Shown piece after piece: positions 41 through 45,796 of a DNA stretch of 64,000 bases (positions are counted from its first letter, which is position 1; every line of letters begins with the position of its first letter). Location: assembly GCA_028286915.1 (NCBI GenBank), contig JAQBQQ010000006.1:9595-73594 (forward strand). Reading direction: 5' to 3'. A program made the position numbers and the translations under genes. A model generated the notes under the pieces. The model made no database searches and was not told the DNA's origin. It was given only the letters and a program-made list of their open reading frames with translations. The stretch comes from Candidatus Peribacteria bacterium. GTDB taxonomy: Bacteria; Patescibacteriota; Gracilibacteria; Peribacterales; Peribacteraceae.

Positions 41-70
41 CGGCTTCGTCAGCCGTGGCTGACTGCGCCG
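41..70. repeat. REP-like hairpin element, copy A (groES-groEL spacer)
   Basis: CGGC-TTC-GTCAGC-CGTG-GCTGAC-TGC-GCCG; same architecture as the copies at tRNAs. Confidence 0.7.
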
Positions 71-113
71 AGATAAGTAAAATGTAGAATGTAAAATGAA
101 AGATATTTTCTGA

Positions 114-455
114 TTATTCCACGATACCCAGGATGGAATCGAGGTGGAGGATTTTTACTTCCAGATCTTTACCATCGGTGGTCTTGAGTTTGACGTCGTC
201 GCCGGCGTACTTGCCGAAGAGCACTTTGTCACCCAGCTTTAAAAACTCCGTCGGGTTTACGGACTCTTTGCCAAGACCGCCTTTACCAAGGGCAATCACT
301 TCGCCTTCCTGTGGTTTTTCACCGGAAGCCGTGTCGGGAATAATGAGGCCGGAAGCCGTAACAGACTCCTTTTCCAGCGGACGTACTACAACCCTGTCCC
401 CAATGGGACGGATGTTGACGGCCAACTTCGGAGTTTTGGGGGAAGCGGTTGCCAT
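114..455 (-). CDS. groES: Co-chaperonin GroES
   Basis: IRPIGDRVVVR...TASGLIIPDTA..EKPQEGEVIALG...GDKVLFGKYAG signature. Confidence 0.97.
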   Translation of the reverse strand: MATASPKTPKLAVNIRPIGDRVVVRPLEKESVTASGLIIPDTASGEKPQEGEVIALGKGGLGKESVNPTEFLKLGDKVLFGKYAGDDVKLKTTDGKDLEVKILHLDSILGIVE

Positions 456-524
456 AGGTAAATTGAAGAAATAAATGAAAGAAATAAGCTGCGTGTCTGG
501 TGCCGGTGCCGTGAATCTACTGCA

Positions 525-551
525 TTAGCAGTCTACATTTTAGAGTGCTAA
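525..551 (-). promoter_or_regulatory. CIRCE operator (HrcA site) overlapping the sigma70 -10
   Basis: Minus strand TTAGCACTC-N9-GACTGCTAA, 1 mismatch to consensus; TTGACT(564-559)-N16-TAAAAT(542-537) promoter. Confidence 0.93.
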
Positions 552-780
552 CCGGTGAAGTCAAGAGTCTTGCTGACGACGAATAGTGTTCAATAGATTA
601 TTCAGAGACGTAATTGGATTGTAAATAGAAAGATATGAAACAGATACGATGAGTAGACGAACAGTGATACGTAAGATTTTCAACAGGCCCGAATGGAATA
701 TGGAGTATTCGCGTAAGAAAAGTAGAAACAAGGCGTCAATGATCCTGTGCAATATTTTCATTTATATTCCCAACCATTGT

Positions 781-2568
781 ATGAAAAAAAGAGTACGGGC
801 ACTTAGTGCGGGAATGATTGTTAGTTTGGTATGTCTGCCACTTTCGCAGGTGCATGCGGCATTGAGCCAGAAGTCCGTCACAATCAGTCCCAACTGGAAT
901 GGGGATTTCATTAGTGATTCGTTCAAGCAGTCTGTTCGCGATGCCAAAGACGTAAATGTTAATATGATTACCCTGGTGCTGCCTTTCCAGCAGGCAAACC
1001 CATGGTCGACCGATATCTGGAAGGCGGCCAACGCGCCAAGTGATGACGTGTTAGGCCAGGCGATTGATTACATTCATTCGATTGGTCTGCAGGTGACACT
1101 AAAGCCGCACTTAGACCCTACCGATGGAAATTGGCGGGCACAAATAAACCCGGGCGACCGTGATTCGTGGTTCAGGAATTATAAAAATTCCGTTCTCCTT
1201 CCGCTGGCCTCCCTTGGCCAGTCTCATGGTGTGGAAGAAATAATTATTGGGACCGAGTTGGCAAAAATGGCCAGTGATAGCGTGAACCCGACAAATTCCA
1301 CTAACTGGCGCGGAATGATCCGGGAAATGAAAAATACATATTCCGGGCAACTTACCTACAGCGCGCAGCACGATGCGGCGCCGGATAACACAAATGAGAA
1401 ATCCAATATAACTTTCTGGAAAGATTTGAATTCCATCGGCATTTCCGCGTACCACCCGGTGGCAACCTGGACGGGTAATCCGACGTCACAAGATGTAAAA
1501 AGTTCACTGCAGCAATGGTATGACACCGAACTAAAACCCATTTCGCAACAGTACGGCAAGCCGATTCTTTTTTCGGAAATCGGGTACCGGAGTGTAGACG
1601 GCGCCAACTATGAACCGTCATCGTACTGGCGGGACGGTAATTATAACCCGCAGGAACAGAGCGCGCTTACGCAGGGCATGTGTGAATTCGTGCGGGATAA
1701 TCCCGGTCTTATAGGTGCCCATATTTGGGACTGGAAGAGCGACCCCAATGCCGGCGGACCGGGTAATAAAGATTATACAGTCCAAAATAAGCCGAGCGAG
1801 GATGTGCTCCGTAATTGTTTCGGCGGTAACGCCGGTTCATCACCTGCGGGCGGTAATTCCAACCCCGGCCCGCAGTCCACATCCTTCACAACAACGGCAA
1901 CGGTTCCCGGTAACCCGGCTGCCGGCCAGGTAATTAACGGATCGGTGACCATACAAAACGCAGTAGCGCAGCCGGCCGGTGGTATTAATGTGGATATTGA
2001 AATTTATGACAGTGCCGGGTCGCCCATGTTCCAGAAAGTATTTATGGGAGAGTCGTTTACGGCAAATCAGTCCAAACAATATCCCTTTGATTGGTCCACG
2101 GGTAAGCAGGGAACATATGTCGTGAAAATAGGCGTTTTTGACAGCAGCTGGTCTACCAATTTTGTCTGGAATAATGAAGCGGCAAAGTTTACGGTAGGCG
2201 CATTAAATCCTCCTCCAAACACAACTCCCAATCCCTCACCGGCGCCGACACCCGCTCCCGGGCCATCCGGCTCTATTGAAGTATGGTGGGTGGGTAACGG
2301 GCAGACAGTATCCGGCCAGCAGCCGTTTAAGGCTCTTCTTACACAGGGAAATGTGGATCAGTATGAAATGTACTGGACGGTGGACGGCGGCCCTGAGGTG
2401 AAAATGTATAACACCAATCAGGATTATCCGCACAAGGAATTTATGGTCGATTTGAATCCATGGACCTGGCGCGGCAATAATGGAACGTATGCTGTCACCT
2501 ACATTGCCCGTTCGAATAACGGTACGGAAATAGCCCGGCAAACCGTCAATATGACGGTAATCCATTAA
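781..2568 (+). CDS. Secreted glycoside hydrolase family 113-like (beta-mannanase-like) protein with C-terminal Ig-like domains
   Basis: Signal peptide; LKPHLD, IGTEL, GISAYHP, KPILFSEIGYRS motifs; Pro-rich linkers. Confidence 0.8.
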   Translation: MKKRVRALSAGMIVSLVCLPLSQVHAALSQKSVTISPNWNGDFISDSFKQSVRDAKDVNVNMITLVLPFQQANPWSTDIWKAANAPSDDVLGQAIDYIHSIGLQVTLKPHLDPTDGNWRAQINPGDRDSWFRNYKNSVLLPLASLGQSHGVEEIIIGTELAKMASDSVNPTNSTNWRGMIREMKNTYSGQLTYSAQHDAAPDNTNEKSNITFWKDLNSIGISAYHPVATWTGNPTSQDVKSSLQQWYDTELKPISQQYGKPILFSEIGYRSVDGANYEPSSYWRDGNYNPQEQSALTQGMCEFVRDNPGLIGAHIWDWKSDPNAGGPGNKDYTVQNKPSEDVLRNCFGGNAGSSPAGGNSNPGPQSTSFTTTATVPGNPAAGQVINGSVTIQNAVAQPAGGINVDIEIYDSAGSPMFQKVFMGESFTANQSKQYPFDWSTGKQGTYVVKIGVFDSSWSTNFVWNNEAAKFTVGALNPPPNTTPNPSPAPTPAPGPSGSIEVWWVGNGQTVSGQQPFKALLTQGNVDQYEMYWTVDGGPEVKMYNTNQDYPHKEFMVDLNPWTWRGNNGTYAVTYIARSNNGTEIARQTVNMTVIH

Positions 2569-2581
2569 TCAGAAATGTGCG

Positions 2582-2610
2582 AAAAGGCTTCCTGGAACAG
2601 AGGCCTTTTT
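2582..2610 (+). terminator. Rho-independent terminator
   Basis: AAAAGGCTTC...GAGGCCTTTTT hairpin followed by a T-run. Confidence 0.6.
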
Positions 2611-2730
2611 GCGGTCCCGGCTTATAGTATTCCTCTTTTGGTATGTACGGTAATCAGCACATGCATTTCTGGCAGGACATGAAAGAAGTACCGACATGTC
2701 ACGTCATATACGCATAGAAAATATATATTT

Positions 2731-3999
2731 ATGGCACGCACTCTTGTATCACCGGCACCGGCGCAGGCAGATCAGACACACCGGAAGCATGCCGAGCTTA
2801 CGTATGATGTGCTCAGCGGAATCAGCTTTGGGCACCTTATCGTCCGTGACCCCGATGGCGTGACGCATGAATTCGGAACCGCACAAACCGAGCCGCATGC
2901 AACGATGGTTATTCGTAACTGGCAATTTTACGCCCGCGTTCTTACATATGGCTCGCTGGGGCTGGGAGAAAGTTATATGGACGGCTGGTGGGCCGTGGAA
3001 GATGACAGGCTGTGTGAATGCATCGGTATCTTTTTAAAGAATGACGTTGAAAAAGCATTATGGAAAAATCCGCTGCTCATAAGCAGAATGCTGTACCATT
3101 ATATCGCAACAAAACCTATTAACAGTTTCCGGAGCAAGAGCAATGTGCATCATCATTACGATTTAAGTAATCAGTTTTTCCGGCTGATGCTGGGGCCGTC
3201 CATGACATACTCATGCGGTGTACTGGAGCAAACGACGAACGCCATGCAGAATACGCTGGAAGCCATTCAGGCCAGGAAATATGATCTTGTGTGCAGAAAG
3301 TTGCAGCTTCAGCCCGGTGACCGCCTGCTGGATATCGGTTGCGGCTGGGGCGGCTTGCTGTTTCATGCCGCCAGATATTACGGCGTACAGGCCACGGGTA
3401 TAACGCTGAGTTCCAACCAGGCGGAATGGATTCGTGCGCGGATACAGAACCAAAAATGGTCACGGCTTGTACGTGTGGAAGAAAAAGATTACCGGGAAGC
3501 AGAAGGTACGTACGATGCCGTTGCCAGCATAGGAATGTTCGAACACGTGGGTGATGCGCAGTACGGTACATTCATGCAAAAGGTTGCCGCATTGCTCAAG
3601 CCCGACGGTAAAGGCCTGCTGCATACCATCGGTTGGCAGAAGCGAACCTGGGCAAGCGTGCAGGACGCCTGGATGTCCACGTATATTTTCCCGGGCGGGC
3701 ACTTGCCAAGCCTGGACCGCATAACGGCGGAAATGCAGAAAGCGGAATTTCTTATCGGTCACATAGAAAACTTCAAGCCGCACTACGCCGAAACACTGCG
3801 TCTCTGGAAACGGAATGTGGATGCCAACCGCCAGAATATAGAAAAGCTGGATGCGCATTTTGATACACGTTTTTTCCGCATGTGGGACTACTATCTGCAG
3901 GCCTGCGACGCCGGTTTTCGCTACGGCCGGCTCCAGTTATACCAGATTCTGTTTAGCAGTGGGCGGCAGTGGGCGTTCCCGCAGCGGTTTCATTATTAG
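2731..3999 (+). CDS. cfa: Cyclopropane-fatty-acyl-phospholipid synthase
   Basis: HHYDLSN, MTYSC, LLDIGCGWG, SIGMFEHVG, YIFPGG, HYAETLRLW, RMWDYYL. Confidence 0.92.
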   Translation: MARTLVSPAPAQADQTHRKHAELTYDVLSGISFGHLIVRDPDGVTHEFGTAQTEPHATMVIRNWQFYARVLTYGSLGLGESYMDGWWAVEDDRLCECIGIFLKNDVEKALWKNPLLISRMLYHYIATKPINSFRSKSNVHHHYDLSNQFFRLMLGPSMTYSCGVLEQTTNAMQNTLEAIQARKYDLVCRKLQLQPGDRLLDIGCGWGGLLFHAARYYGVQATGITLSSNQAEWIRARIQNQKWSRLVRVEEKDYREAEGTYDAVASIGMFEHVGDAQYGTFMQKVAALLKPDGKGLLHTIGWQKRTWASVQDAWMSTYIFPGGHLPSLDRITAEMQKAEFLIGHIENFKPHYAETLRLWKRNVDANRQNIEKLDAHFDTRFFRMWDYYLQACDAGFRYGRLQLYQILFSSGRQWAFPQRFHY

Positions 4000-4029
4000 T
4001 GGTGCGTAATACATACTGCGTACTACTAG

Positions 4030-4620
4030 CTAGGCGCCGTGCATTTGCCAGATCTTTACTGCCCGAATGGGATAGATCAGCATAATGACATTGAGCGTAA
4101 GATTATCGCGGATGAAAAACAGCATGCCAAGTTCAATAAGAAGACTGATGACGAGGGTCCATTTAACCGGCAGTCTGGCTGCCAGATAAAACCCGAGTAT
4201 GCAGGACACCACATCACCGACAGAGTTAAGAATGCTGTCGCCCATGTAGTCCAGCGAAGCAGTGGCTGCCCGGTACCGGTTGATAATAACGGGCGAATTT
4301 TCCAGTAGTTCCCAGCCGATTTCTATAACCGTAGCAATAACAAGGCGCTGCCGTACTGTCAGTTTCTTGGAAAAAATTGTAAGAAGAGCGTAAAAAATAA
4401 AGCCATGCAGAATGTGTGATAAAGAATACGGATCCGCGAAGTGCTGTGATGTGGCATTGCTCCAGGCGTTACCTGTCCAGAGGCCGAAGCCGCACGCGCA
4501 CATGGCAATGCGACCCATAAAATGCAGTATGAGCGCCTGCGCCGTAATCAGTACAAGAATTATCGTCCCTGCCAAGGCCGACGGATGGTTTCTGATACTG
4601 CTCTGTATCTGCGTCATCAT
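4030..4620 (-). CDS. DUF2585 (UPF0314) membrane protein
   Basis: MGR..C.CG, SQHFADPYSLSHILHG, WELLEN, GDSILNS, IRDNLTLN. Confidence 0.88.
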   Translation of the reverse strand: MMTQIQSSIRNHPSALAGTIILVLITAQALILHFMGRIAMCACGFGLWTGNAWSNATSQHFADPYSLSHILHGFIFYALLTIFSKKLTVRQRLVIATVIEIGWELLENSPVIINRYRAATASLDYMGDSILNSVGDVVSCILGFYLAARLPVKWTLVISLLIELGMLFFIRDNLTLNVIMLIYPIRAVKIWQMHGA

Positions 4621-4703
4621 GGAACTATACTACGCGGGTATCTTCCATTTCGAAAATCAGCAAATATCTTGATGCCTGAAAGAAAAAAGTGGATGATAGC
4701 CAT

Positions 4704-5063
4704 ATGGATTTCAACACGCTCACGCCCGAAGAGAAGCGCATAATAGAAGACAAGGGAACGGAAATGCCGTTCACCGGCGAGTACGATAATACGTTTGAGA
4801 AAGGTACGTATATCTGCCGGCGCTGTAATGCCGAGCTTTACAGATCCGACGATAAATTCCACTCCGGCTGCGGCTGGCCCAGTTTTGATCAGGAAATTCC
4901 CGGAGCCGTCCAGCGCATTCCGGATGCTGATGGCAGCCGTATAGAAATTCAGTGTGCCAATTGCCACGCTCATCTGGGACATGTATTTGAAGGTGAGCAG
5001 CTCACCGAAAAAAATACACGTCATTGTGTGAATTCACTGTCCATGCGGTTTGTGGCTGAATAA
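4704..5063 (+). CDS. msrB: Methionine-R-sulfoxide reductase
   Basis: [36 protein letters not shown]. Confidence 0.95.
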
Positions 5064-5129
5064 TTGTTACATCTAAAAAAGCCCCTTACCCGCTATGGGC
5101 AAGGGGCCATGACCGCAATCGATCTGGGC

Positions 5130-5489
5130 TTATACAGGGAAACTCGCAAGCGCAGTCTCTCGATCCTCGTGAATGTCGAATGCCTCAGTGAGCCCTGTGA
5201 GCTTGAATGTCTTAAGAACCGATGGCTGGATGCCGCAGAGCTTCATTTGGACGGCAACTCTTTTTGCCGCTTCGCAAGTCATAAACAGAGAATGAACTCC
5301 GGTCGTACTCAGATACAGGACACTGGTGAAAACCAGCACCATTCCCATCGGTCGTTCGTCGACCAATTGATGAATGTTGCGAGCCAGTTCTCCAGTGGCA
5401 TCTTTCGTGAAAATGCTGGAATTGATGAATGTTGCGACCGTGATGTTATTCACGCGCTCAACATTCAAATACGTATTCGACTGCAGCAT
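5130..5489 (-). CDS. STAS-domain anti-sigma factor antagonist
   Basis: VLYLSTTG, LCGIQPSVLKTFKLTGL..F.I....E.AL pattern. Confidence 0.8.
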   Translation of the reverse strand: MLQSNTYLNVERVNNITVATFINSSIFTKDATGELARNIHQLVDERPMGMVLVFTSVLYLSTTGVHSLFMTCEAAKRVAVQMKLCGIQPSVLKTFKLTGLTEAFDIHEDRETALASFPV

Positions 5490-5658
5490 GCGGTGCCTCC
5501 TGACAAGTAAAGGATCAGACTGATGCACGGTAGGACATTGGCTAAGTACACAATAAATAAAATTCATGATTTGTCAAAATTATTGACCAATCTTGCATAA
5601 TATCCGTTCACAACCACCAAAAGCTCTGTTACAGTCACGCAGCTCAATCTTTATTATT

Positions 5659-5745
5659 GCCCGGATGGCGGAATTGGTAGACGCGCACGCTTCAGGAGCG
5701 TGTATCCGTAAGGTTGTGGAGGTTCAAGTCCTCTTCCGGGCACCA
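5659..5745 (+). tRNA. tRNA-Leu(CAG)
   Basis: Cloverleaf with long variable arm; anticodon arm CACGC-TT-CAG-GA-GCGTG; GTTCAAGTC; CCA end. Confidence 0.96.
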
Positions 5746-5831
5746 GCCTTCGCGCAGCGGAGGCTGCCCGCCGGAACGAAGTGAAGGTGGGCACTACTTA
5801 TAAAATGGACTGCGCTCCGGCTGGCGAGCCA
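5743..5831. repeat. REP-like hairpin element, copy E, with a nested inverted copy in its loop
   Basis: CCAGCC-TTC-GCGCAG-[52 nt]-CTGCGC-TCC-GGCTGG; inner copy on the minus strand GCCCACC-TTC-ACTTCGT-TCC-GGCGGGC. Confidence 0.65.
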
Positions 5832-6231
5832 TTTCTTTATCATTGATTAATTTCTGCATTCCAATATAGAAAGCAGGCTGCATCTCATGAGAAGTTCTTT
5901 GGCTTGGATCAGGACATGAATTTTGGAAACAGCGTTTGCAAATTCATGATGATCAGAAATAACATCTCAAAGGCTGGACATGAGAAAAGGAGGAAAGCTA
6001 ATTTTCTTCGGTTAGCGCTTTTTGGTTCTGCCCTTCCTTTTTATCGTAGTGAACTTGTCAGACATAGATCGAAAATGACTTTAGCTGTAATGTCTTGATT
6101 AGGCCGATTCACATCAGAAAAAATTTCAGTGCGAGTCATCTCTGCGCGATCTGCAAACAGATCAATGAGAATCGGCGATACCAGCGGCCAATGCAAGGAA
6201 CCTACCCGCCTGAATCAGATATTTTTCTGCA

Positions 6232-7443: not shown

Positions 7444-7626
7444 GGGTGTTTGTGCGGAAATTACTGTATATTATAACATATTTATTAGTTTATAACAAAT
7501 TAAAGCAAGGTGCACATCCGGAAACTCTGCCAGTAGCGCATAGTATGGTTCCATCAATTATGTATGCGCTTGATTCATTTCTAAAGCCGGAGCGCCTGAT
7601 TGCAGCATTGAGAAAATAAAAATTTC

Positions 7627-11259: not shown

Positions 11260-13245
11260 ATGAAACATCTCTCCCGCCTGTCTGTTGCCGATGCGCTTTT
11301 ACTTTTTTTACTGACATTCACCATTCTTTGGAAGGGCGGCAAGAGTCTGGAATCCACCTGGCTATTGGTGTTCGTTGCAGGGTTTTGCGTTTTGAGTTAC
11401 TGGGAACATCATCGCCGGAAAAAAGATAATTATACGCTGGGCGTTTCGCCGCTGGTGTGGTGGAGCGGTGTGCTGTTTATTGTCTGGACGGTATGCAGCT
11501 TTTATTTTTCCACAACCCGAAACTACGGCTTCGACGAAGTGATCCGTGATACGGCGCTTATTCTTCTGCTATATATTATAGCGCGTCGCAAGCCTGATGA
11601 CGCCTCCCGGAATCATATAACGGGCCGTCATATAGTCTGGCTGATTGCCATACTTTCGGTACTGGCGTGTGAGATAGGCGTGGCGGTGTATGTATTTCAG
11701 CCGGTAAACCGTTTTGTGGGTACGTTTTTTGATTATCGCTTTACCACTGATTATTGGCCAAATGCCTGGGCGGAATTCCTGCTGCTCGCATGGCCGGCTG
11801 TCTTATGGCGCTTCAATTATGCAAAAATACGGTTTGCACGTATTGGCTGGTTTTTGGGATTGGGCTTTGTCTTTGGCTGCATGCTTCTAAGCTATTCGCG
11901 TGGCGCGCTCCTGGCCTTGTTTGGCCAGTTGTTTATTTTTGGCGCTTTTGCGCTTATGGCGAAGCAAAAAGAGGAACATTCGTTTGTTGCCCAGCTGCGT
12001 CATTGGTTTAAAAAAAGCGCGCCTATTAAGGGCTATGTCTACCTGCTCATTCCCGTACTGGCCGTGAGTATTTTTCTTATTGTCAATGGTCTCAGATCCC
12101 AATTTTTTGCCGTGCAGGATGTCGGCCAGAAAATTACATTTACCGCCGCCGAAGGAGCGTCATCCAAAACAGAACGTTCGCAGTTCTGGCGGCAGGCGGC
12201 ACATTTGTCGCTGGAAAAACCGCTCTTTGGCTGGGGCCCGTACAGTTTCCGTTTCCTGCAGCCGTATAAGCAGGAAGGAATTCTGGAAACAGCCGATCAT
12301 CCGCATAATGTATTTCTAAAGATCGCCATGGAGCGCGGCTACCCGGCGCTGCTTTTGTACCTGTTATTCCTGGGCGGTATTTTAATTCCGGCCGGTCGCC
12401 GTATAATTCGCAGAGGTACTCTGTTGGATACTCATACACTGTCATTCATAGCCGTACTTGGCGTGCTGGCACATAATCTTATTGATTACAATTTGCAGTT
12501 TGTAGGCGTGAGTCTGCCGCTTACATTTCTTCTCGGTATTCTGGCGGCATCAGACAGGGCGTACGTATTTCCGCAGAAGAAAGTTGTGCGTGTCGTGGAA
12601 ATAGTCATGGCATGCGTATTGCTCATTGTCACAATTTCAGAAGGTAGATATCTCTTTCTTTCGTCACTCGGGCGCCATGCGGAATCGGTGGGCAATACGC
12701 AAGCGGCGCTCACATGGTACACAGCCGCTTCGCATGAGTTATTCTCCCGCGATTTATTGTTGAGCCAGGCTGAATTATATGCCGAAATCGGTGACATGAC
12801 TGCAGCGCAAAAAGCATTACGGGCATACCATTTGGTCAATGCGTGGGACTACCGTTGGGCCAAGCTGGCAGGTTTGCTTGCGTACGAAAATGGCGACAAT
12901 GCCCGGGCTCGGGAGTTGCTCACGCAAGCGTACGCAGCCGGCAAATATAATGACATAAGCATTGTAAAGCCGCTGCTGCAAAGCTCTATTGCCCTGGGCA
13001 AACCGGCGTTTACCCAGGACGAATTGGAAAAACTGCTGTCTACGTACCACACTGCCATTCAGAACAATGCGCATTACATTTCACTATCGCCAAATGTGGA
13101 GGCATTTATTGACCTGGCAACCTATGTGGCGGATGTATACCCGGATGCGTCGCTGGCACTTGTGAGTGAAATAGATGATGTGAGGAATAAAGCCCGCGAA
13201 GCGCGTTCGCAGCTTTCGGCACATAAGCCGGGACTTCTGTGGTGA
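11260..13245 (+). CDS. O-antigen ligase (Wzy_C) family protein with C-terminal TPR-like region
   Basis: LLSYSRGA, R..FW, PLFGWGPYSF, HPHNVFL..AMERG, HNLIDYNL. Confidence 0.85.
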   Translation: MKHLSRLSVADALLLFLLTFTILWKGGKSLESTWLLVFVAGFCVLSYWEHHRRKKDNYTLGVSPLVWWSGVLFIVWTVCSFYFSTTRNYGFDEVIRDTALILLLYIIARRKPDDASRNHITGRHIVWLIAILSVLACEIGVAVYVFQPVNRFVGTFFDYRFTTDYWPNAWAEFLLLAWPAVLWRFNYAKIRFARIGWFLGLGFVFGCMLLSYSRGALLALFGQLFIFGAFALMAKQKEEHSFVAQLRHWFKKSAPIKGYVYLLIPVLAVSIFLIVNGLRSQFFAVQDVGQKITFTAAEGASSKTERSQFWRQAAHLSLEKPLFGWGPYSFRFLQPYKQEGILETADHPHNVFLKIAMERGYPALLLYLLFLGGILIPAGRRIIRRGTLLDTHTLSFIAVLGVLAHNLIDYNLQFVGVSLPLTFLLGILAASDRAYVFPQKKVVRVVEIVMACVLLIVTISEGRYLFLSSLGRHAESVGNTQAALTWYTAASHELFSRDLLLSQAELYAEIGDMTAAQKALRAYHLVNAWDYRWAKLAGLLAYENGDNARARELLTQAYAAGKYNDISIVKPLLQSSIALGKPAFTQDELEKLLSTYHTAIQNNAHYISLSPNVEAFIDLATYVADVYPDASLALVSEIDDVRNKAREARSQLSAHKPGLLW

Positions 13246-26480: not shown

Positions 26481-26520
26481 GCTGGCCTGCCGGCCGTAGT
26501 TCGCCACTGCGAACGAAGGC
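26481..26520 (-). repeat. REP-like hairpin element, copy B, abutting the tRNA-Ser CCA
   Basis: GCC-TTC-GTTCGC-AGTG-GCGAAC-TAC-GGC-CGGCAGGCCAGC. Confidence 0.75.
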
Positions 26521-26610
26521 TGGCGGAGAGAAAGGGATTCGAACCCTTGAGACCCTTGCAGGTCTAACAGTTTTCAAGACTGTCGCCATCGACCACTCGG
26601 CCATCTCTCC
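26521..26610 (-). tRNA. tRNA-Ser(TGA)
   Basis: GGAGAGATGGCCGAGTGG...ACAGT-CT-TGA-AA-ACTGT, long variable arm, GTTCGAATCC, CCA. Confidence 0.96.
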
Positions 26611-38327: not shown

Positions 38328-38372
38328 ATTCCAAACCAACATATGTTTGCAAAATGGAGTTTGGAATTTAAG
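38305..38372. repeat. Inverted heptamer repeat array
   Basis: AAGTTCC AAATTCC AAGCTCT AAATTCC ... ATGGAGT TTGGAAT TT. Confidence 0.7.
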
Positions 38373-38470
38373 AGGATATCGTCATAATTCTTATCCTAAG
38401 GGTTCTCCGGCAAATTTCCGCAAAACGGGTCTGGCCAAAGTGTTATTTCTGCATATACTGCCTGCACCAC

Positions 38471-38564
38471 GGAGAGGTGCCTGAGTGGCCGAAAGGGCCG
38501 CACTGCTAATGCGGTATACGGGATTAAACCCGTATCGGGGGTTCGAATCCCCCCCTCTCCGCCA
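38471..38564 (+). tRNA. tRNA-Ser(GCT)
   Basis: CCGCA-CT-GCT-AA-TGCGG anticodon arm, long variable arm, GTTCGAATCC, CCA. Confidence 0.96.
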
Positions 38565-38567
38565 TCC

Positions 38568-38607
38568 GTCTTCGTCCGCCGTGGCGGACTGCGGCCGGCA
38601 GGCCAGC
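38568..38607 (+). repeat. REP-like hairpin element, copy C
   Basis: GTC-TTC-GTCCGC-CGTG-GCGGAC-TGC-GGC-CGGCAGGCCAGC. Confidence 0.75.
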
Positions 38608-38738
38608 TATAATAGCGGCTTACATTCAGCCGTATCAGACAAATAGCTTCGGCTGGCAGATATTTTCACGTATCTGCACTATAAGCGATATCTGTAAAAT
38701 CCCACGACTCGGCCGCCGTCTCATGCTTTACTGTCCGT

Positions 38739-39683
38739 ATGTCGACACTTCGTCATGTTCCGGTTTTTCATGCGTTTGGGCACCGGCAAGGTGAAGATAG
38801 CCTGATGATGCAACTTTTGGCCCCAAAAAACGATGATATCGTCATTGATTGCACCCTGGGTCTGGCCGGCCACGCCAAAGCTTTTCTGGAAAAAACTGCT
38901 CCGGCAGGGCACCTGTACGGCCTGGATGCCGATGCCGATAACATTGCTCTCGCCAACGAAAATCTATCGGACTTTCAAAGCAGATGTACACTGATTCATT
39001 CCAATTTTCGCCATCTGCCCGAACTGCATTTGCCACCGGCAAATATTATCTTTGCGGATCTCGGTCTTAGCTCCGCGCATGTGGATGACCCGGAAAGGGG
39101 ATTCAGCTTCCGGACAGAAGGCCCGCTAGATTTACGGTTTGACCGTTCCACTGGCATAACAGCGGCGGAATACATTGCCCAAACCAATGAAAGTGACCTG
39201 AAATATATGTTCCGGCGTTTTGGCGAGCTGAAAGAAGCCAACCGAATTGCTCATGCGCTTTTTGCCGCCGCGCGACATGAAGTATTACGTACTACGACGG
39301 ATCTTGTGCGGGTATGCGATGAAACATTCGGTTACAGGGCTCCTGCGCTGTTGCCGCAGATTTTTCAGGCTTTACGCATGCAGGTGAATGATGAGCTGGG
39401 TGCGCTGGAAAAGCTCCTGGCTACCGCTCCGTATATGCTCAAGCCCGGCGGCAGATTCGGCATTATCACTTTTCATTCTCTGGAGGACCGGCTGGTTAAG
39501 CGTACTTTTAAAAATCTGGCGCAGCCTGAAATAGATGAAATAACCGGACAAATTCGTACGGCTGCACCATTTGATTTGCTGACAAGAAAGCCACTCACGC
39601 CAACTGCCGGAGAAATCAGCCTAAACCCGCGCGCCAGAAGCGCACACTTCCGCGCCATTATCCGCACAGAACAGACGGCATGA
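38739..39683 (+). CDS. rsmH: 16S rRNA m4C1402 methyltransferase
   Basis: HVPV, DCTLG.AGH, DLGLSS, RGFSF...GPLD.R, FQALR..VN.EL, FHSLEDR, NPRARSA. Confidence 0.95.
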   Translation: MSTLRHVPVFHAFGHRQGEDSLMMQLLAPKNDDIVIDCTLGLAGHAKAFLEKTAPAGHLYGLDADADNIALANENLSDFQSRCTLIHSNFRHLPELHLPPANIIFADLGLSSAHVDDPERGFSFRTEGPLDLRFDRSTGITAAEYIAQTNESDLKYMFRRFGELKEANRIAHALFAAARHEVLRTTTDLVRVCDETFGYRAPALLPQIFQALRMQVNDELGALEKLLATAPYMLKPGGRFGIITFHSLEDRLVKRTFKNLAQPEIDEITGQIRTAAPFDLLTRKPLTPTAGEISLNPRARSAHFRAIIRTEQTA

Positions 39684-39725
39684 GTCAATCGTGAGATGCG
39701 AGCAATCTGCTACAATGCATCCGCT

Positions 39726-40103
39726 GTGTTTTCATTTTTGAAAGAATCATCGGCTGTGCCCCGGCGGCTGTCACTCGGCCGCATGGTAAACCAAAGTACC
39801 GTGCTTCTTATGGTCAGCATCGGTTCACTTATTCTTATTCTGGCGCTTCTTATTCTTTTTCACGAGAATGCCAATGCCACTAAGGGCTACGACTTGCGCA
39901 AATTGGAATCCGACCGCTCGGCCTATTTCCTGGAGCAGGAGGTCTTAAATATGCAGATTGCCGAAGCGCAGGCGCTGGAAAAACTGCGGACGGACTCTCA
40001 AATCGGTACTATGATACCGGTCAAAAATCCCCGTTTCGTGCCATCAGCCGCCCAGATAATTACTCCAAAAAAATCTGACCCGGTTGCTAAAAACAACTAT
40101 TAG
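39726..40103 (+). CDS. FtsL-like bitopic coiled-coil protein
   Basis: Directly after rsmH; single TM, then KGY.L..LE coiled coil. Confidence 0.65.
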   Translation: MFSFLKESSAVPRRLSLGRMVNQSTVLLMVSIGSLILILALLILFHENANATKGYDLRKLESDRSAYFLEQEVLNMQIAEAQALEKLRTDSQIGTMIPVKNPRFVPSAAQIITPKKSDPVAKNNY

Positions 40104-40286
40104 CCATATATAAGCCAATAGGACTGGATTGTAAATTTTAAACTTTCTGCATACGACAGGCAGAGGCACGGGGGTTTCTACCTCAAAAAAATTATTCCGT
40201 ATTCACGGCCTCTCGAATATATGAGACTGGCGCCGGACAGCTTTTTTTGCTATACTAATAGGATTTATTTTTTCACATACATACCA

Positions 40287-40409
40287 ATGTCTTTCTATCA
40301 GCTCCTTCCCTACGCCATGTTCGTAGACGCCGTTGCCATCGGCTACATTCTCCAGACCGTCTGGTCACGCAGCCGCACCCGTCCTTTGAATATGGAAGTT
40401 CCGGAATAA
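40287..40409 (+). CDS. 40-aa hydrophobic microprotein
   Basis: MSFYQLLPYAMFVDAVAIGYILQTVW...; TATACT upstream, terminator downstream. Confidence 0.5.
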   Translation: MSFYQLLPYAMFVDAVAIGYILQTVWSRSRTRPLNMEVPE

Positions 40410-40434
40410 AATCCGGCAGTACATGACGCTTTAT

Positions 40435-40468
40435 AAAAAAAACCGGAGCATAATGCTCCGGTTTTTTT
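40435..40468. terminator. Bidirectional terminator
   Basis: A8-CCGGAGCA-TAA-TGCTCCGG-T7. Confidence 0.85.
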
Positions 40469-40479
40469 GTCATAACGTA

Positions 40480-41487
40480 TTATCGATTACGTGCAGATTC
40501 GTGTCTGTTGTCACAGTAATCAAGATAGTTCTGACGGGTATAGCTATTGTAATACGTACATGTGGAATCCGATGAGCTGCTGCTATTGCCGTAGTAGTCC
40601 ACGCGCGTTGTTTCCGTATCAGATGTATTATCTGTTTCGGCACGGAATACAAGACTGGAGTTACTGCTTAAGTTAGTGCGGGTACGGACACGGAGTGTGA
40701 GTGTATGGATATCATTCGGATACAACCGAAGATTGGTCCACTCGACGTTATTGGAACTCAGACGGGTGCCATTTTCGGTAGCCGATACAAATGTCGTGTT
40801 GCTGTCCAGGTAGCCGCGCACATTTACCGTCGTAGTGTACGACGAGTTATTCCGGACATCGATTGTATAGGTAAGTGCGTCATCGGAACGGACAGGGTCA
40901 CGGTCATCGTTAATAGACAATGTGACGTTGTTATCGATACTGCAGTTGCTACAGTTACTGCTGCCACTGATTACCTTGATCGTCTTCGCCGCACTGTCGC
41001 TATCGGTCTGCACTCGCAAGCGCAACGTGTCGCCGCTGCGGACACCGGAGCTAATGCGGACACGCAAAGTAATTGTCTGCGTTGTACCCTGGTAGACATA
41101 AAAACTGCGCCAGTCCACCTGGTCACTACTGTCGTCCCCGTTGCTGGAAGCGGAGACAAAGGTCATGTTTGGATCCAATAAGGCGTTCACATTTGTTGTG
41201 ATGTCAGAATTTCCCCGGTTTCGTAGCTTGATGGTAAAATTTACCGTATCTCCCGCACGGACATTGCTGTAATCGCTGGTAACCGTAGTAGTAATATCCT
41301 GATAGCTGGAAGAGGATATGCGGCTACTGGACGAATTTGAACCGGACGTCGTATTACGGCATACCGTGTCATAGCACATGCCGTTCTGGTAAAAATTGCA
41401 GGAACAGACCTGAATAGCTTCTGCTGCCGGAATAAGCAGCAAAACTGCTGCCACCAGCCCGAAAAATAGAAAAAAAGGTTTTTGCAT
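40480..41487 (-). CDS. Secreted DUF11 repeat protein, Ser/Thr/Cys-rich
   Basis: Two G.T...TI...N....L....TFVSA......V.W repeats. Confidence 0.8.
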   Translation of the reverse strand: MQKPFFLFFGLVAAVLLLIPAAEAIQVCSCNFYQNGMCYDTVCRNTTSGSNSSSSRISSSSYQDITTTVTSDYSNVRAGDTVNFTIKLRNRGNSDITTNVNALLDPNMTFVSASSNGDDSSDQVDWRSFYVYQGTTQTITLRVRISSGVRSGDTLRLRVQTDSDSAAKTIKVISGSSNCSNCSIDNNVTLSINDDRDPVRSDDALTYTIDVRNNSSYTTTVNVRGYLDSNTTFVSATENGTRLSSNNVEWTNLRLYPNDIHTLTLRVRTRTNLSSNSSLVFRAETDNTSDTETTRVDYYGNSSSSSDSTCTYYNSYTRQNYLDYCDNRHESARNR

Positions 41488-41659
41488 AGGGAATAAGGCT
41501 ATTTCTAATTATTTGAGCCGTCAAGAGTCAAATTGACGAATATCTGTATTTATTTATGATAATCATTTGGCTATTTTTCTGCACGCACAAGACACATCAT
41601 ACTTCAAAGGCGGCCTGCGTCATTCGATTTGCGGGCATTTATTGCTCTATCGTAAAGCA

Positions 41660-42211
41660 GTGTCTCATCTGCCATATTTTTATAGCACCACAAAGACCGG
41701 CAAAAGGTTCTTTCGACGCAGGGCGTTCACACTCATAGAACTGCTGATTGTCGTTGCTATTATTGCCGTATTGGCCGCTATTGTCTTCTTTAGCGTAGGT
41801 GGCAATATCAAAAAAACTAAATTTGTGCGGGCAAAAGCAGAGTTAGCCCAAATATCTCAGGCTTTGAATCAATATATTATAGAAAATAAAGGCGCTCTTC
41901 CGCCTGATGCCGACCGTTCCGTACCACCGGGTATTGAATCCTATCTCGGACCGGGAATATGGCCGAACGGACCGTGGGAAGGAAGCGTATATGACTGGGA
42001 TGTATATCCGGATCGGATAAGCGGACCAAATTATCAGGTTTCCATTCGTTTCTGTCCGCTGGGAAAACCAGCCGACTGCCATTTCCCGGATGAACCCTGG
42101 GCCGCCAACTTCGATTATTACAGCAGCGTCTATTTCTGTGTACAGGGAAATTGCAAAGCTCATCCGGATCAGCCACAAGACCATGCTGGCTACTGTATTA
42201 ATTGTCAGTAA
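41660..42211 (+). CDS. Type IV pilin / T2SS pseudopilin-like protein
   Basis: AFTLIELLIVVAIIAVLAAI prepilin motif; Cys-rich C-terminus; GTG start inferred. Confidence 0.88.
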   Translation: MSHLPYFYSTTKTGKRFFRRRAFTLIELLIVVAIIAVLAAIVFFSVGGNIKKTKFVRAKAELAQISQALNQYIIENKGALPPDADRSVPPGIESYLGPGIWPNGPWEGSVYDWDVYPDRISGPNYQVSIRFCPLGKPADCHFPDEPWAANFDYYSSVYFCVQGNCKAHPDQPQDHAGYCINCQ

Positions 42212-43177
42212 TCAGGTCTTGAAACGGATAGGAATATGGCGCTCCTGCCCGCGTTTGCCCGGTGCCAGATATTCAAAAATTTCTACCGTGCCCTGTTTCC
42301 CCTTGGCTGCCGTATAAGGTATGGGCAATGAAATGGTTCCGTAGTTTCCTTTTTTGGGAAGCGGCACAAAGAAATCCTGCAACGCCAGTTCCGTACCATC
42401 GGCATCCAGAATACGCACCCGTACAGGATTATCGTAAATTCGTGCCCGGCCGGTAAGGGTAAAGGGATTTGCAATTGCTTCGCCTTCAACCGGGTTCTGA
42501 ATATATAGAACAAGATCCTGTGCCTCCAATGCCGCATCGGTCATCGTGTCTTCCTCATACACTTTACCATCCGGTGTCTGACATATGCGCGGGCTGCCAT
42601 CGTTTACGTAATAGCCTGCCGCCGCACACTCTTCAAAGGTATCCAATTCGGGCGTTTTCACTTTTGTCGCCACAACAGCCGCCTTATTTCCAAAAAAATA
42701 ACGAACGCCCAGGTAACCGCCGGTGGAAATACCACCGATCAGAATCATAGCTCCGCCTGTCATGAGTAATGTCCTGAACAATGCCGGTAAACCTTCGTCA
42801 TTTTTGAGCTGAAAAAAAGAACCCGATGCAGTCGCCTTAACTGGTGATGCATCTGCAACTGACGGTGCCACCCATTGCGGTACAGATGCAGGAGAGAACG
42901 AAGGCGGATTGGCATGGAGAGTGTCTTGTGCCGGCGGCAATGTATGTAATTCCTTATGAGAATAGGTTGTTAAACCGCCTTTTTGTGCCGGGAAAAAATC
43001 CGGTGACGGGCTGCGAGAAGCAGCCGGTTTATTTTCTGCAGGCGTAGAAATCGATTTGGTGCCCGCTTTCTTTTTTTCTTTGCCGGCAGTTTTCTTGACG
43101 GCAGAAGATTTTTTTACAACCGGCTTCTTGGGTGCCGTAATTTTTTTCGGAGTAGTGCTTTGCAATTTCTTAGGCAT
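42212..43177 (-). CDS. Gmad2 Ig-like domain membrane protein with Lys/Pro-rich N-terminus
   Basis: TFEECAAAGY.V....PR.C.TPDG module shared with 14418; G.AR, G.VEIFE. Confidence 0.75.
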   Translation of the reverse strand: MPKKLQSTTPKKITAPKKPVVKKSSAVKKTAGKEKKKAGTKSISTPAENKPAASRSPSPDFFPAQKGGLTTYSHKELHTLPPAQDTLHANPPSFSPASVPQWVAPSVADASPVKATASGSFFQLKNDEGLPALFRTLLMTGGAMILIGGISTGGYLGVRYFFGNKAAVVATKVKTPELDTFEECAAAGYYVNDGSPRICQTPDGKVYEEDTMTDAALEAQDLVLYIQNPVEGEAIANPFTLTGRARIYDNPVRVRILDADGTELALQDFFVPLPKKGNYGTISLPIPYTAAKGKQGTVEIFEYLAPGKRGQERHIPIRFKT

Positions 43178-43346
43178 AGTAAAATACTACCAGTTAGCGC
43201 TAATAGAAGTACTTCCCGACAAACAGAGGTGTGGTGAAATGGAAGAACATTGCCATGCAGACAAAGTTGGAAAATTTTGCATGAAAAGCAGTCCTCATTG
43301 CTCCATTACATTCAGAAGCAGACTTTCATTCCATGCCTACAACGTA

Positions 43347-43904
43347 TTAGTTTTTAAGTAATTTTAACACCGTATTCCAGTTCCGGGTTGTTACATTTTT
43401 TCCGTATGATTTCTCCAGTATCTTCATGGCATCGGTGGATTGTACTGTCGGCTCTAAAACCAGAACACTGCACACTTCCGTATTGGACGCCCGTAGAATG
43501 GTAAAATTTCCGGCAGGGGATTTATATGGCAGCTTGACCGTTGCGGTAACAGCCTCAGCTAAAAACGTAACATACAGCTGCGTATCATCAGTCATTGGTA
43601 TGTTGCCAAAAGGATCGGCATCTATAAGTTTTTGCATGTCCCAAACGGATCGAATAATAACATTCGAATGAAACCCGAACGATTGCTCGATAATTTTTTC
43701 GATCTTCTCGGCTACGTGCGGAGTCTTGTCTTCCGGCGCATCAAACAAGATATTTCCGCTGTTCAGCAAAGTCTGTACATTCTTAAAACCTGCTTTCTCC
43801 AGAGCCTTCGTCAGTTCTGCCATGCTCACTTTTTTATGGCCGCCTACGTTAATGCCCCTAAGAAATGCAACATAGCGAATGGAATGGGCATCGGAAGGCT
43901 TCAT
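43347..43904 (-). CDS. DUF1697 family protein
   Basis: YVAFLRGINVGG, V.T.L.SGN, TTRNWNTV.KL. Confidence 0.92.
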   Translation of the reverse strand: MKPSDAHSIRYVAFLRGINVGGHKKVSMAELTKALEKAGFKNVQTLLNSGNILFDAPEDKTPHVAEKIEKIIEQSFGFHSNVIIRSVWDMQKLIDADPFGNIPMTDDTQLYVTFLAEAVTATVKLPYKSPAGNFTILRASNTEVCSVLVLEPTVQSTDAMKILEKSYGKNVTTRNWNTVLKLLKN

Positions 43905-43998
43905 GACTCATAGCCTAGTATAAATCTTCTCAAACACCCACTCGAAAAAAGTGAAATTTTTGATGAACAAACAACATGAGTCTGCTAATATGGACTAT

Positions 43999-44634
43999 AT
44001 GAAAATCACTAAGCTCGGACATTGTTGCATGCTTATCGAAGAAAATGGCGTACGAATACTCACGGATCCCGGCGCGTGGACAACCACGCAGCTGGACGTA
44101 CGCAATCTGGATATAATTCTTATTACGCACGAACACGCGGATCATTTTCATCTGGATTCACTCAAAAAAATTCTGGAGCACAATACAAATGCCATCGTGG
44201 TGACCAACAAGAGCACCGGCGCGCTGCTGGATAAAGAGGGGATTTCTTATCAGGGCGTGGATGATGGAACAATGGAAATAATACAGGGAATTGCAATCAG
44301 CGGACACGGCACGAAACACGCCGTTATTTACCCCGCACTTCCGAACATGGAAAATACGGGTTTCTTTATTGCCAACAAGTTTTTCTTTCCCGGTGATTCA
44401 TTTGTCATGCCGCCATTGCCGGTGGATATTCTGGCACTGCCCATTGCCGGACCATGGATGAAACTATCCGAAGCTATTGATTACCTGAAAGAAGTAAACC
44501 CCCGCATCTCATTCCCGGTTCATGATGGCATGATTCAGCCGGTGGACTGGCTGCATGCAAGTATTGAGCACATTTCCAAAAGTCTCGGCCTGAATTTTCA
44601 AGCGGTAAAAGTTGGGGAGGAAAACGAGTGGTAA
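43999..44634 (+). CDS. MBL-fold metallo-hydrolase
   Basis: GHCC, TDPG, THEHADH, PGDS, PVHD. Confidence 0.9.
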   Translation: MKITKLGHCCMLIEENGVRILTDPGAWTTTQLDVRNLDIILITHEHADHFHLDSLKKILEHNTNAIVVTNKSTGALLDKEGISYQGVDDGTMEIIQGIAISGHGTKHAVIYPALPNMENTGFFIANKFFFPGDSFVMPPLPVDILALPIAGPWMKLSEAIDYLKEVNPRISFPVHDGMIQPVDWLHASIEHISKSLGLNFQAVKVGEENEW

Positions 44635-44640
44635 ATCCAA

Positions 44641-44850
44641 TCAATCACCTGCATTCCATTGTCTCTGAAATTCATCTGAAGGTGTCCACACTCTCTGGTT
44701 TCTTATTTTTCCATCCGGTGACTGGGTAATGACTCGCCAGACGTCTTCTCGTACCTGTTCTTTGGAGACGACTATAAAAGCAGGGCAATGTATTTTTAAT
44801 GGAGGTGGTTCTTCTGGGGACTTTTTCCTGAAAAAAGAAAGGATGTTCAT
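44641..44850 (-). CDS. Hypothetical protein
   Basis: 69-aa ORF in AT-rich islet. Confidence 0.5.
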   Translation of the reverse strand: MNILSFFRKKSPEEPPPLKIHCPAFIVVSKEQVREDVWRVITQSPDGKIRNQRVWTPSDEFQRQWNAGD

Positions 44851-44913
44851 AATGGAATGGTATTCTTTATGAGAGATTATAAAGATCTAAGATTAGATAA
44901 AGTCCACCTGCGG

Positions 44914-45597
44914 CTATTGCAAAACAAAAGCTGCATCACTTACATCACTGGCTAACAAGGGAAGGATGAAGGGATGAGCATAATCAGGCTGGCCTTTGCT
45001 TCCATCGGGGATAAGAATATTTTCGCCATCGAACGTATCAAATTCATCAGTTAAAATATCAACCGGATCTTCAATGCCATTGCTTGGTGTTTTGTTTCTT
45101 ATAAGGAGAAGCACTCTATATTCGCCAGGACCAGGCGATTGTTCTGTTGTATCAAGACCTCCATTATGCTGAAGTTTTTCTGGCCTCCAAACATATGATG
45201 CTTTTGATATATCGGTTACACCACCAATATAACCTTCCACTATTCCATCAGTCCTTAGCAAATATAGCTCTATAAGCATATTTTTCGATATTTTCTTTTT
45301 TAGCGAATTACTGATTTTATAACGAATAGTAATATTAGAACTCATGGTAAATTTCTCTCCGCCATTAGGAGCAACAATAGAAATATCAGGCGATTGTATG
45401 TTGGGAATACTTGGCTTTGGCAATTGTTCACTTATTAATGATGACGCTTCTTCACTCGAAGAAGCTGATGAAAATGTATCAACTGATGCACCCGGGCTTG
45501 CTGTATCCGCGGTATGGGATACATCTTCCGGTGCTACGCATGAAGTTAAAAAAAGCAAAGAACCTATACTAATACTAATTGATAAAAATTTAATCAT
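44914..45597 (-). CDS. Hypothetical lipoprotein with Ig-like (PNGGE) domain
   Basis: Lipobox LTSC; I..PNGGE...SD..F; low GC. Confidence 0.7.
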   Translation of the reverse strand: MIKFLSISISIGSLLFLTSCVAPEDVSHTADTASPGASVDTFSSASSSEEASSLISEQLPKPSIPNIQSPDISIVAPNGGEKFTMSSNITIRYKISNSLKKKISKNMLIELYLLRTDGIVEGYIGGVTDISKASYVWRPEKLQHNGGLDTTEQSPGPGEYRVLLLIRNKTPSNGIEDPVDILTDEFDTFDGENILIPDGSKGQPDYAHPFILPLLASDVSDAAFVLQ

Positions 45598-45641
45598 CAG
45601 AACATCTTTGGAAGTAAAACAAGTACTATATGTGAGCTGAA

Positions 45642-45718
45642 TGGTACCCCGGACAGGAGTCGAACCTGTGACCTCGACCTTAGAAGGGTCTTGCTCTATC
45701 CAACTGAGCTACCGGGGC
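45642..45718 (-). tRNA. tRNA-Arg(TCT)
   Basis: GCCCCGGTAGCTCAGTTGGATAGAGC, GACC-CT-TCT-AA-GGTC, GTTCGACTCC, CCA. Confidence 0.95.
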
Positions 45719-45742
45719 ATAACGATGATACTCATGATTTCC

Positions 45743-45796
45743 CCAACTGCTTGCCGGTCGTAATCCGCAGGGCGGACGAAGGCTGGAGCTACCGGG
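45743..45796 (-). repeat. Duplicated tRNA-Arg 5' fragment interrupted by REP-like copy D
   Basis: Plus strand CCAACTG-[37 nt element]-AGCTACCGGG versus uninterrupted CCAACTGAGCTACCGGG at 45700-45716. Confidence 0.7.

Follow-up and report, generated by a model that had tools for sequence, protein, structure and literature searches.

Does a short hairpin that recurs beside tRNA genes belong to the tRNA operons, or is it a repeat that has settled there? The question is raised by a stretch of 64,000 nucleotides from Candidatus Peribacteria bacterium (NCBI GenBank assembly GCA_028286915.1, contig JAQBQQ010000006.1, positions 9,595 to 73,594), referred to below as the window, in which an initial annotation had described six hairpin elements of one architecture and had likened them to REP (repetitive extragenic palindromic) sequences handled by REP-associated tyrosine transposases (RAYTs). 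The window lies on contig C25 of a genome (G000) that comprises 1.43 Mb in 48 contigs and is rated 100% complete. As set out in the following, the hairpins belong to a repeat family which is probably a non-autonomous, REP-like mobile DNA element targeting tRNA genes. REPs are among the commonest bacterial repeats, and the sites and manner of their insertion are poorly known; to our knowledge, no target rule for them has been established beyond the term "extragenic".

A dispersed hairpin family docked at tRNA genes

Candidate copies were collected from the whole genome by a pattern scan and nhmmer, with the picking kept blind to tRNA genes, and 25 matches were obtained at E<0.05. Alignment of 22 copies provided a covariance model, R1, which matched the genome 26 times at E<=0.001, i.e., at the 22 seeds, including the window copies A, B, C, and D, and at 4 new sites; four of the 26 copies thus lie inside the window. 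This procedure replaced early loose scans with regular expressions, which had returned 96 matches as against 41-68 in shuffled sequences, mostly chance hairpins. With 26 genomic copies, the dispersal supposed from the window was borne out, and so was the supposed preference for tRNA genes: 17 of the 26 copies are found at most 200 nt from one of the 43 genes for tRNA or transfer-messenger RNA (tmRNA) in G000, a zone amounting to 1.46% of the genome (binomial p 1.7e-25). The same applies to 16 of the 25 nhmmer matches, and 9/26 R1 copies are more than 200 nt away from every such gene. Outside any open reading frame (ORF) of at least 100 aa lie 18/26 copies, and 8 putative ORFs overlap a copy.

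Docking at the 3' end is exact to the base. At tRNA-Ser(tga), tRNA-Ser(gct), tRNA-Ser(cga) (contig C28), and tRNA-Cys (C12), the first bases of the element are the tRNA's own CCA, which results in the order N73-CCA-sCC-TTC..., and all 3'-docked R1 copies of G000 (4/4) share the orientation of the tRNA. CCA is encoded in 43/43 of the tRNA and tmRNA genes of this genome. Two of these copies belong to the window: copy B (26481..26523, minus strand, first noted as 26481-26520; R1 E 4.6e-13) begins at the CCA of tRNA-Ser(tga) (26521..26610, minus strand), and copy C (38562..38607, plus strand, first noted as 38568-38607; R1 E 1.2e-12) begins at that of tRNA-Ser(gct) (38471..38564, plus strand). Their common tail is GGCCGGCAGGCCAGC, as the annotation had it. 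A second CCA follows the element end GGCArG in 12 of the 15 3'-docked copies read in G000 and other genomes and is missing or unclear in 3. This second CCA could stem from the clean insertion, between N73 and C74, of an element with a CCA start of its own, from duplication of 3 nt, or from a tail belonging to the element. Flank repeats at 3'-docked and non-tRNA copies in G000 did not rise above chance, the longest being 7-8 nt at a null 95th percentile of 8. Apparent target duplications in the relative G007 (loci L046, L048, and L053) were set aside, as the repeats sit in pre-existing AT-rich tandem motifs. Likewise, the intrinsic terminator was rejected as a candidate, with T-runs only after B and the C28 copy and with the hairpin absent behind the same tRNAs in the relatives G001 and G004.

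At the 5' side, the element is found within a dead piece of tRNA gene. For tRNA-Met, Arg(tct), Thr(tgt), and Asp, a hairpin of 36-37 nt splits a truncated second copy of the tRNA 5' part between positions 12 and 13 (GCT^CAG), in the 5' strand of the D-arm stem. Past the insert, tRNA-specific sequence is resumed (CAATGGTTAGA for Asp, CAGTTGGTA for Met and Thr), and the intact gene follows 10-24 nt beyond the fragment. In the window, this arrangement is represented by copy D (45750..45785, minus strand, first noted as 45750-45786; R1 E 4.6e-10), whose 36-nt hairpin interrupts, with clean junctions, a defunct 5' fragment of tRNA-Arg(tct). The left part of this pseudo-fragment (45786..45796, minus strand), CCCGGTAGCTC, corresponds to tRNA positions 3-13 and is an 11-nt exact repeat of the gene's 5' end; the right part (45743..45749, minus strand), CAGTTGG, resumes the D loop past the insert when read against the intact gene, which lies 24 nt downstream (45642..45718, minus strand). 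The tmRNA, tRNA-Val(tac), and tRNA-Arg(tcg) have the same fragment layout with the insert at positions 7-9, and other hairpin families are placed likewise upstream of tRNA-Leu(caa), Lys(ttt), Phe, Val(tac), Asn, Arg(gcg), and Val(gac), where repeats of leader plus tRNA extend to at most 42 nt. By an exact repeat of at least 10 nt, a 5' fragment was recognized at 10/43 genes, and together with three shorter or mismatched ones found by eye at 13/43; an insert is present in 13/13 of these fragments. The polarity is fixed, with fragment, hairpin, and intact gene following one another so that the intact gene is on the element's 3' side.

ARAGORN and Rfam agree on four tRNA genes in the window, and it was correctly noted that each of them has an adjacent element, three at the CCA end: B, C, and E begin at the CCA, and D is situated 27 nt upstream of tRNA-Arg. 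E (5743..5831, plus strand) is a composite trailer of tRNA-Leu(cag) (5659..5745, plus strand), whose CCA forms its first three bases. It has the ends of the family (CCAGCC-TTCG ... GGCTGG-CGAG-CCA), encloses different internal hairpins as well as a nested reversed partial copy, and is not matched by R1. At lowest energy, it folds into a local hairpin, GCCTTCGC-GCA-GCGGAGGC, which by eye is altered on both sides in two sister copies of the E type, after tRNA-Leu(tag) and tRNA-Lys(ctt). Copy A (38..74, core 41-70, plus strand; R1 E 2.9e-10) occupies the groES-groEL spacer and is antisense to groESL, because its CCA-side strand is the plus strand of the window. The single architecture ascribed to six elements therefore stands for A, B, C, and D at their places, and E shares the family ends only. 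In Rfam, tRNA alone reached the gathering score in the window, and at the five hairpin loci no match for the hairpin was obtained at E<=1. No RNA data set matched the region 45300-46300, and reads from the one matching DNA run and from two RNA runs of that study were short tRNA-like pieces from other organisms and left the hairpin uncovered.

The family is laid out as outer stem, TTC, a 6-bp GC hairpin with tetraloop, T(A/G)C, and outer stem. The outer palindrome comprises 5-6 bp (CCsCC/GGsGG), is followed by CAGG(C), and is joined to the inner hairpin via a conserved mismatched 3x3 loop (TTC/TRC). TRC is near-invariant in the 22-copy alignment as judged by eye (T invariant, A or G in 18/22, C in 19/22); therefore GTAG or GCAG appears on the opposite strand, its last G being the first stem base. 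The reported GTAG, GCAG, or GTAA ahead of the hairpin on that strand was found again, and the hairpin is GTAG-tagged as REPs are. The stem mismatch of REPs has its counterpart in the conserved 3x3 loop and in an A.C mismatch of the outer stem in 11/22 copies. Pairing cells account for 81.4% in the 22-copy alignment, as compared to 73.2% in shuffles and 24-48% with the partners slid, and two-sided changes occur at 9/14 pairs, which was reached by 0/500 shuffles. In the inner stem, one position (C-G to A-U, 7/22 copies) makes up nearly all two-sided change. The covariation described in the annotation is thus real; nevertheless, it is modest and no proof of selection, because repeat copies are kin and palindromes can self-correct. 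The pairing pattern fits a structure-selected element and palindrome-templated repair alike, and the two cannot be told apart by it. Folding energies of single copies are unremarkable and not decisive (z -1.4 to -2.2; -0.6 for E). One inverted pair of variant copies is present in G000 (C38:20795-20933); R1 copies are mostly singletons and do not form the REPIN or BIME unit of two inverted REPs.

Further small palindromes and trailers were observed at tRNA genes of G000. A second palindrome family, CCCCGAAGGGGnCCCTTTGGG, has 12 copies (C5, C8, C11, C16, C38, and other contigs), none of them in the window; 6 sit in D or anticodon loops of pseudo-tRNA copies, one example being C38:20440-20500, where a tRNA-Thr copy is truncated and carries two inserts. 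A structured 3' trailer family of about 85 nt follows tmRNA (C34), tRNA-Leu(caa) (C5), Val(tac) (C24), Leu(gag) (C46), and Arg(tcg) (C16) in the order TTCGACTCGCA, a variable paired hairpin, CTCATGGTAAACCACGATCT, and then GAGTCGAATGAC, and a third trailer family (CGTAAAATCGCGCAG...) is located behind tRNA-Met, Leu(taa), and Asp. On contig C43, tRNA-Arg(cct) (12595-12669) is followed after 23 nt by a 3' half-copy of a tRNA, which reaches from the anticodon arm to CCA and differs in its acceptor stem; this is the kind of repeat that integrase-type integration leaves.

Gain, loss, and spread among relatives

R1 was found in 15/18 genomes of the same family and, outside that family, in 0/12 genomes of the class. 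When each genus was represented by a single genome, 38/61 had matches at E<=1e-5, the copy number ranging from 0 to 22 and being highest in G000. At orthologous loci, presence and absence alternate. The groES-groEL spacer is free of copy A in G001 and G003, which belong to the same genus, and likewise in G007, G009, and G033. The same spacer contains other, mutually unrelated hairpins in G008, G013, and G014 (L077, L071, and L074), and small palindromes appear to land there repeatedly. At tRNA-Arg(tct), neither fragment nor hairpin exists in G003, and the fragment of G004 carries a hairpin of different stem. The element of tRNA-Ser(tga) is absent in the congeneric G001 and G004, and variants beginning at the CCA were found at Ser(tga) in G003, at Ser(cga) in G006, and in G009. 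At tRNA-Asp, G004 and G007 are without a fragment, and G002 and G003 have other inserts. An insert of another family at position 18 of tRNA-Met is common to G002, G003, and G004; its flanks can be aligned, and its inner stems are wholly different yet paired. The element consequently enters or leaves loci on the timescale that separates species of one genus. This variation at orthologous loci agrees with the mobility that had been suggested and contradicts simple conserved terminators, for which identical positions in all relatives had been expected.

Docking itself recurs in other genomes. Among 20 loci fetched around R1 matches in G007, G013, and G014, 18 hold the core, and 7 of these 18 are docked at tRNA genes, i.e., one at a tRNA 3' end, five as D-arm inserts with fragment and intact gene, and one in a T arm. 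The latter belongs to G014, where a 3' fragment is duplicated downstream of tRNA-Thr and its T loop harbours the element. Because the element is reversed relative to the tRNA, here too it has the intact gene on its 3' side.

A scan for the exact core in public genomes (one genome per species, 596 Gb) revealed 104 loci, 80 of them with titles; this collection overlaps with the compared relatives, and the tallies are not independent. With all four bases equally frequent, about 2 matches would be expected by chance in 596 Gb; GC-rich DNA would yield more. The titled loci are distributed over Peregrinibacteria/Peribacteria (41 of 80), Acidobacteriota (13), other Patescibacteria (6), one Nitrospirales genome (4), unnamed "bacterium" entries (4), and others (12), some of which are plainly chance or coding matches. 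To such matches belong four Streptomyces loci (L158, L180, L225, and L235), which were rejected on account of near-identical flanks in what by eye is an apparent conserved protein-coding gene; L225 and L235 were called Streptomyces from near-identical sequence. A tRNA 3' end is occupied in 5/104 public loci, three of them from Acidobacteriota, and a position upstream of a same-strand tRNA in 20/104, with an exact repeat of at least 9 nt in 10 of these; a tmRNA 5' repeat is present in 3/104. The 3'-docked form is nearly identical in Peregrinibacteria, other Patescibacteria, and Acidobacteriota. In the latter, L147, L150, and L151 have almost the same CCA-docked hairpin with the tail GGCArGCCA after tRNA-Ile and tRNA-Val, and ten further loci of Acidobacteriota type contain the same core within a different repeat (TCCTTCGACTCCC ... 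TCGCTCAGGATGAC). Another public record, L230, features the hairpin at GCT^CAG of a seemingly complete body and 3' end of tRNA-Asn; the 5' acceptor strand is mismatched, and no intact copy is present within 200 nt. The locus may represent either a gene that has died or an insertion with another outcome.

RAYT homologues and known systems

The initial annotation had found no cognate enzyme. This is true of the window, but five RAYT homologues are encoded in G000 outside it, none of them flanked by R1. Y1_Tnp was matched six times in this genome, and five ORFs of 142-194 aa (stop to stop) have NF047646, REP-associated tyrosine transposase, as their best NCBIfam match, with 93.5, 88.5, and 81 bits over the curated cut-off of 80 and 76.7 and 74.2 bits under it. 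The five are located at C30:4908-5492, C36:4125-4670, C5:36827-37255, C38:1039-1581, and C4:13754-14212. Canonical IS200-type TnpA genes (E 1e-35 to 1e-41) were detected in G001, G003, G004, and G013 and not in G000. R1 and RAYT coincide in 35 of the 61 genera; R1 occurs without RAYT in 3, RAYT without R1 in 10, and neither of them in 13 (Fisher p 5e-5, Spearman 0.56; both statistics ignore kinship). REPtron layouts, in which a RAYT gene lies between REPs, were observed at C5:36800-37430, where the REP GGTC-GCrGCC-AGGTAC-GGCyGC-TCTG has 7 copies and covarying stems, and at C4:13600-14335, where GCGGCCGCGAAGGGCCACTCT has 4 copies. One copy of these RAYT-flanking REPs is located at C25:7348, just beyond the window.

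A RAYT-like Y1 domain was also observed in frame within leucyl-tRNA synthetase (LeuRS), between NWIGRxEG and TTRPDT, with which the editing domain starts, at C31:38130-39146 and C35:6318-6485 (contig ends) in G000 and at L240:1777-4947 in G007. It retains the HUH motif (DHLHLL) and the tyrosine motif YIQQNP and occurs in 11/61 genera, mostly in ORFs of about 980-1077 aa. As the cognate enzyme it was discarded: with the query used, it was confined to those 11/61 genera and was not found in the R1-bearing G013, G014, and G015.

REPs, REPINs, and RAYTs are well described (PMC3116915, PMC2817692, PMC5581495), and one RAYT per genome is said there to be typical (PMC5581495). The E. coli TnpA-REP requires GTAG 5' of the stem and a stem mismatch, and IS200/IS605 relatives are characterized by strand-specific insertion, the absence of a target repeat, and hairpins in single-stranded DNA (PMC3333891). 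REPs of 8 phyla were sorted into GTAG and CGTC superfamilies, the latter without linked transposase and with short unpaired tails mostly fitting CCA (Di Nocera et al. 2013, PMC3733652), and the GTAG-23 REPs of T. roseum are nested in small GC palindromes, CCGSSCC(n)GGSSCGG (PMC3733652). In the available text of that article, tRNA is named solely for REPs inside tRNA-related protein genes (PMC3733652).

Compared with GTAG REPs and REPINs that have a RAYT (E. coli, Pseudomonas), the present family likewise consists of short, imperfect, GC-rich palindromes that carry GTAG 5' of the stem on one strand and share a conserved mismatch; its copies are dispersed and extragenic, their number differs widely between relatives, inverted pairs exist, and RAYT homologues co-occur with it. 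It differs from them by the absence of a REPtron, by a copy number of about 26 that is low for a REP family, by its extra outer palindrome and tail, and by exact docking at tRNA and tmRNA genes with partial duplication of the gene at D-arm sites. With IS200/IS605 elements (IS608, ISDra2) and their gene-less derivatives it has in common clean insertion beside a short target, here GCT^CAG and N73^CCA, without a target duplication of its own; unlike them, it consists of one hairpin instead of distinct left and right ends, and its target looks structural, a stem-loop junction of tRNA genes. Integrative elements that target tRNA genes are kilobase-sized, possess their own integrase, usually reside at the 3' half, and spare the gene by bringing along or duplicating a part of it. 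Casposons also use tRNA genes as landing sites (PMC5137440), and the present family resembles both in this choice and in the preservation of the gene; it departs from them in that the inserts are 36-55 nt long and the duplicated part is local sequence. The CGTC and GTAG-23 REPs show CCA-like tails, GC-palindrome nesting, and, for CGTC, families lacking a linked transposase; nevertheless, they stem from other phyla, their docking at tRNA genes is unreported in the available text, and a closer match is possible in this comparison by text and not by consensus sequences (PMC3733652). An incomplete search of the literature, confined to running text, found neither REP-like docking at tRNA genes nor partial tRNA duplications of this kind. 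The family is considered a variant form of REP-like mobile DNA, distinguished by its targeting of tRNA genes.

Mechanism, competing readings, and significance

The reading as mobile DNA draws on a repeat family that is gained and lost at orthologous sites, docks at tRNA and tmRNA genes with base precision, has clean junctions and a fixed polarity, and co-occurs with RAYT genes. As is assumed for REPs and REPINs, the element might move in single-stranded form, mobilised in trans by one of the five Y1 (HUH) transposases of RAYT type, and stem-loop junctions of the tRNA-gene cloverleaf in single-stranded DNA could be its target. Landing between the discriminator base and CCA would keep the tRNA gene whole, because the element itself begins with CCA. 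The duplication is not intrinsic to insertion, because plain 3' insertions and intergenic copies have none. It could be a rare by-product kept by selection, given that plain D-arm insertions would kill an essential single-copy gene; alternatively, the polymerase may slip back just past the new hairpin and recopy the leader plus the 5' part, a conjecture that predicts the observed polarity. A more far-reaching form of the proposal appears possible, albeit doubtful: the family would be a cloverleaf-specialised single-strand REP whose own CCA makes landing harmless and whose landing in D or T arms is coupled by slippage to a gene-rebuilding tandem copy, with 13/43 genes scarred, and the Acidobacteriota form would reflect transfer between episymbiont-type bacteria and other soil and groundwater phyla.

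Several observations weigh against mobility by means of a RAYT. No R1 copy flanks the RAYTs of G000 or G007 (best E 0.056), so that a REPtron is lacking; in G048, a single one-sided copy lies about 165 nt from a RAYT without a partner opposite, and the RAYTs on C5 and C4 are flanked by inverted copies of their own, different REPs with 7 and 4 genomic copies. RAYT was absent at E<=1e-8 from 3/38 R1-positive genomes, and the co-occurrence statistics, as mentioned, take no account of kinship. Neither a transposition event nor an excised circle nor polymorphism within a population was seen, and the mechanism of duplication is conjecture. Moreover, the paired but wholly different stems at the tRNA-Met site of G002, G003, and G004 would also be expected from structure selection, and the near-identity of the 3'-docked form in three groups could mean function, not mobility.

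These last points lead to the view that the hairpins serve mainly as RNA (or DNA) signals with a function in tRNA operons, e.g., for termination, exonuclease block, or 3'/5' processing, which are kept by selection and resemble repeats incidentally. The exact CCA start and common orientation of the 4/4 3'-docked R1 copies in G000, the almost identical trailer behind tRNAs of three phyla, pairing held while the stem sequence varies, and the T-runs behind B and the C28 copy agree with it. Nevertheless, such a signal is hard to reconcile with its absence after the same tRNAs in congeneric genomes, with 9/26 copies that have no tRNA or tmRNA gene within 200 nt, with copy A lying antisense in a groESL spacer that is empty of it in close relatives, and with copies inside dead tRNA fragments, among them the reversed T-loop copy of G014. 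Copies oriented opposite to the nearby tRNA-Asn, Glu, and Thr(cgt), the range of 0-22 copies across genera, and the lack of any Rfam match point in the same direction, and this view is regarded as unlikely. It is compatible with mobility, as REPs are known to be co-opted, and the two are not exclusive.

Still less probable is a composite element, in which the outer palindrome and tail (CCsCC-TTC ... TRC-GGsGG-CAGGC) are an older unit or a preferred target, small hairpins are inserted or swapped inside, and the covarying stems are replacements. Identical ends with different interiors were indeed met in E and its two relatives, in the pair at C38:20795-20933, at Arg(tct) in G004, at Ser(tga) in G003, at Ser(cga) in G006, and at Asn and Arg(gcg) in G000, and the nesting of GTAG-23 REPs in small GC palindromes of Thermomicrobium roseum offers a parallel (PMC3733652). 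However, no empty outer palindrome turned up, though no search aimed at one was made, and palindrome-templated repair could produce the same pattern. Direct repeats of 9-42 nt of tRNA plus leader around the inserts, together with the tRNA 3' half-copy downstream of tRNA-Arg(cct), recall attL/attR scars left by larger elements that an integrase once inserted and that later decayed, or the junctions of a cassette site of integron type. This origin of the tRNA-part repeats is the most improbable one considered, as one insert of 36-55 nt recurs at many different tRNAs, each with a tRNA-specific repeat, as the hairpin interrupts the fragment and is flanked by tRNA sequence left and right instead of lying between two att copies, and as 3'-docked copies lack a duplication.

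For the biology of REP-like elements, the family is of interest in several respects. It gives base-exact insertion sites at which essential genes serve as natural reporters, and it offers a possible structural target in the stem-loop junctions of tRNA-gene DNA. The mimicry of CCA would be a means by which the element avoids harm, and the recurrent, polar, partial gene duplication may record events at the replication fork at an inserted hairpin. In G000, the family accounts for the dead 5' fragments before almost a third of the tRNA genes, and such fragments can mislead the annotation of tRNAs and promoters in candidate-phyla-radiation genomes. Finally, five RAYT homologues in 1.43 Mb, together with a RAYT-like domain in LeuRS, make this lineage a good one in which to test the function of RAYTs.

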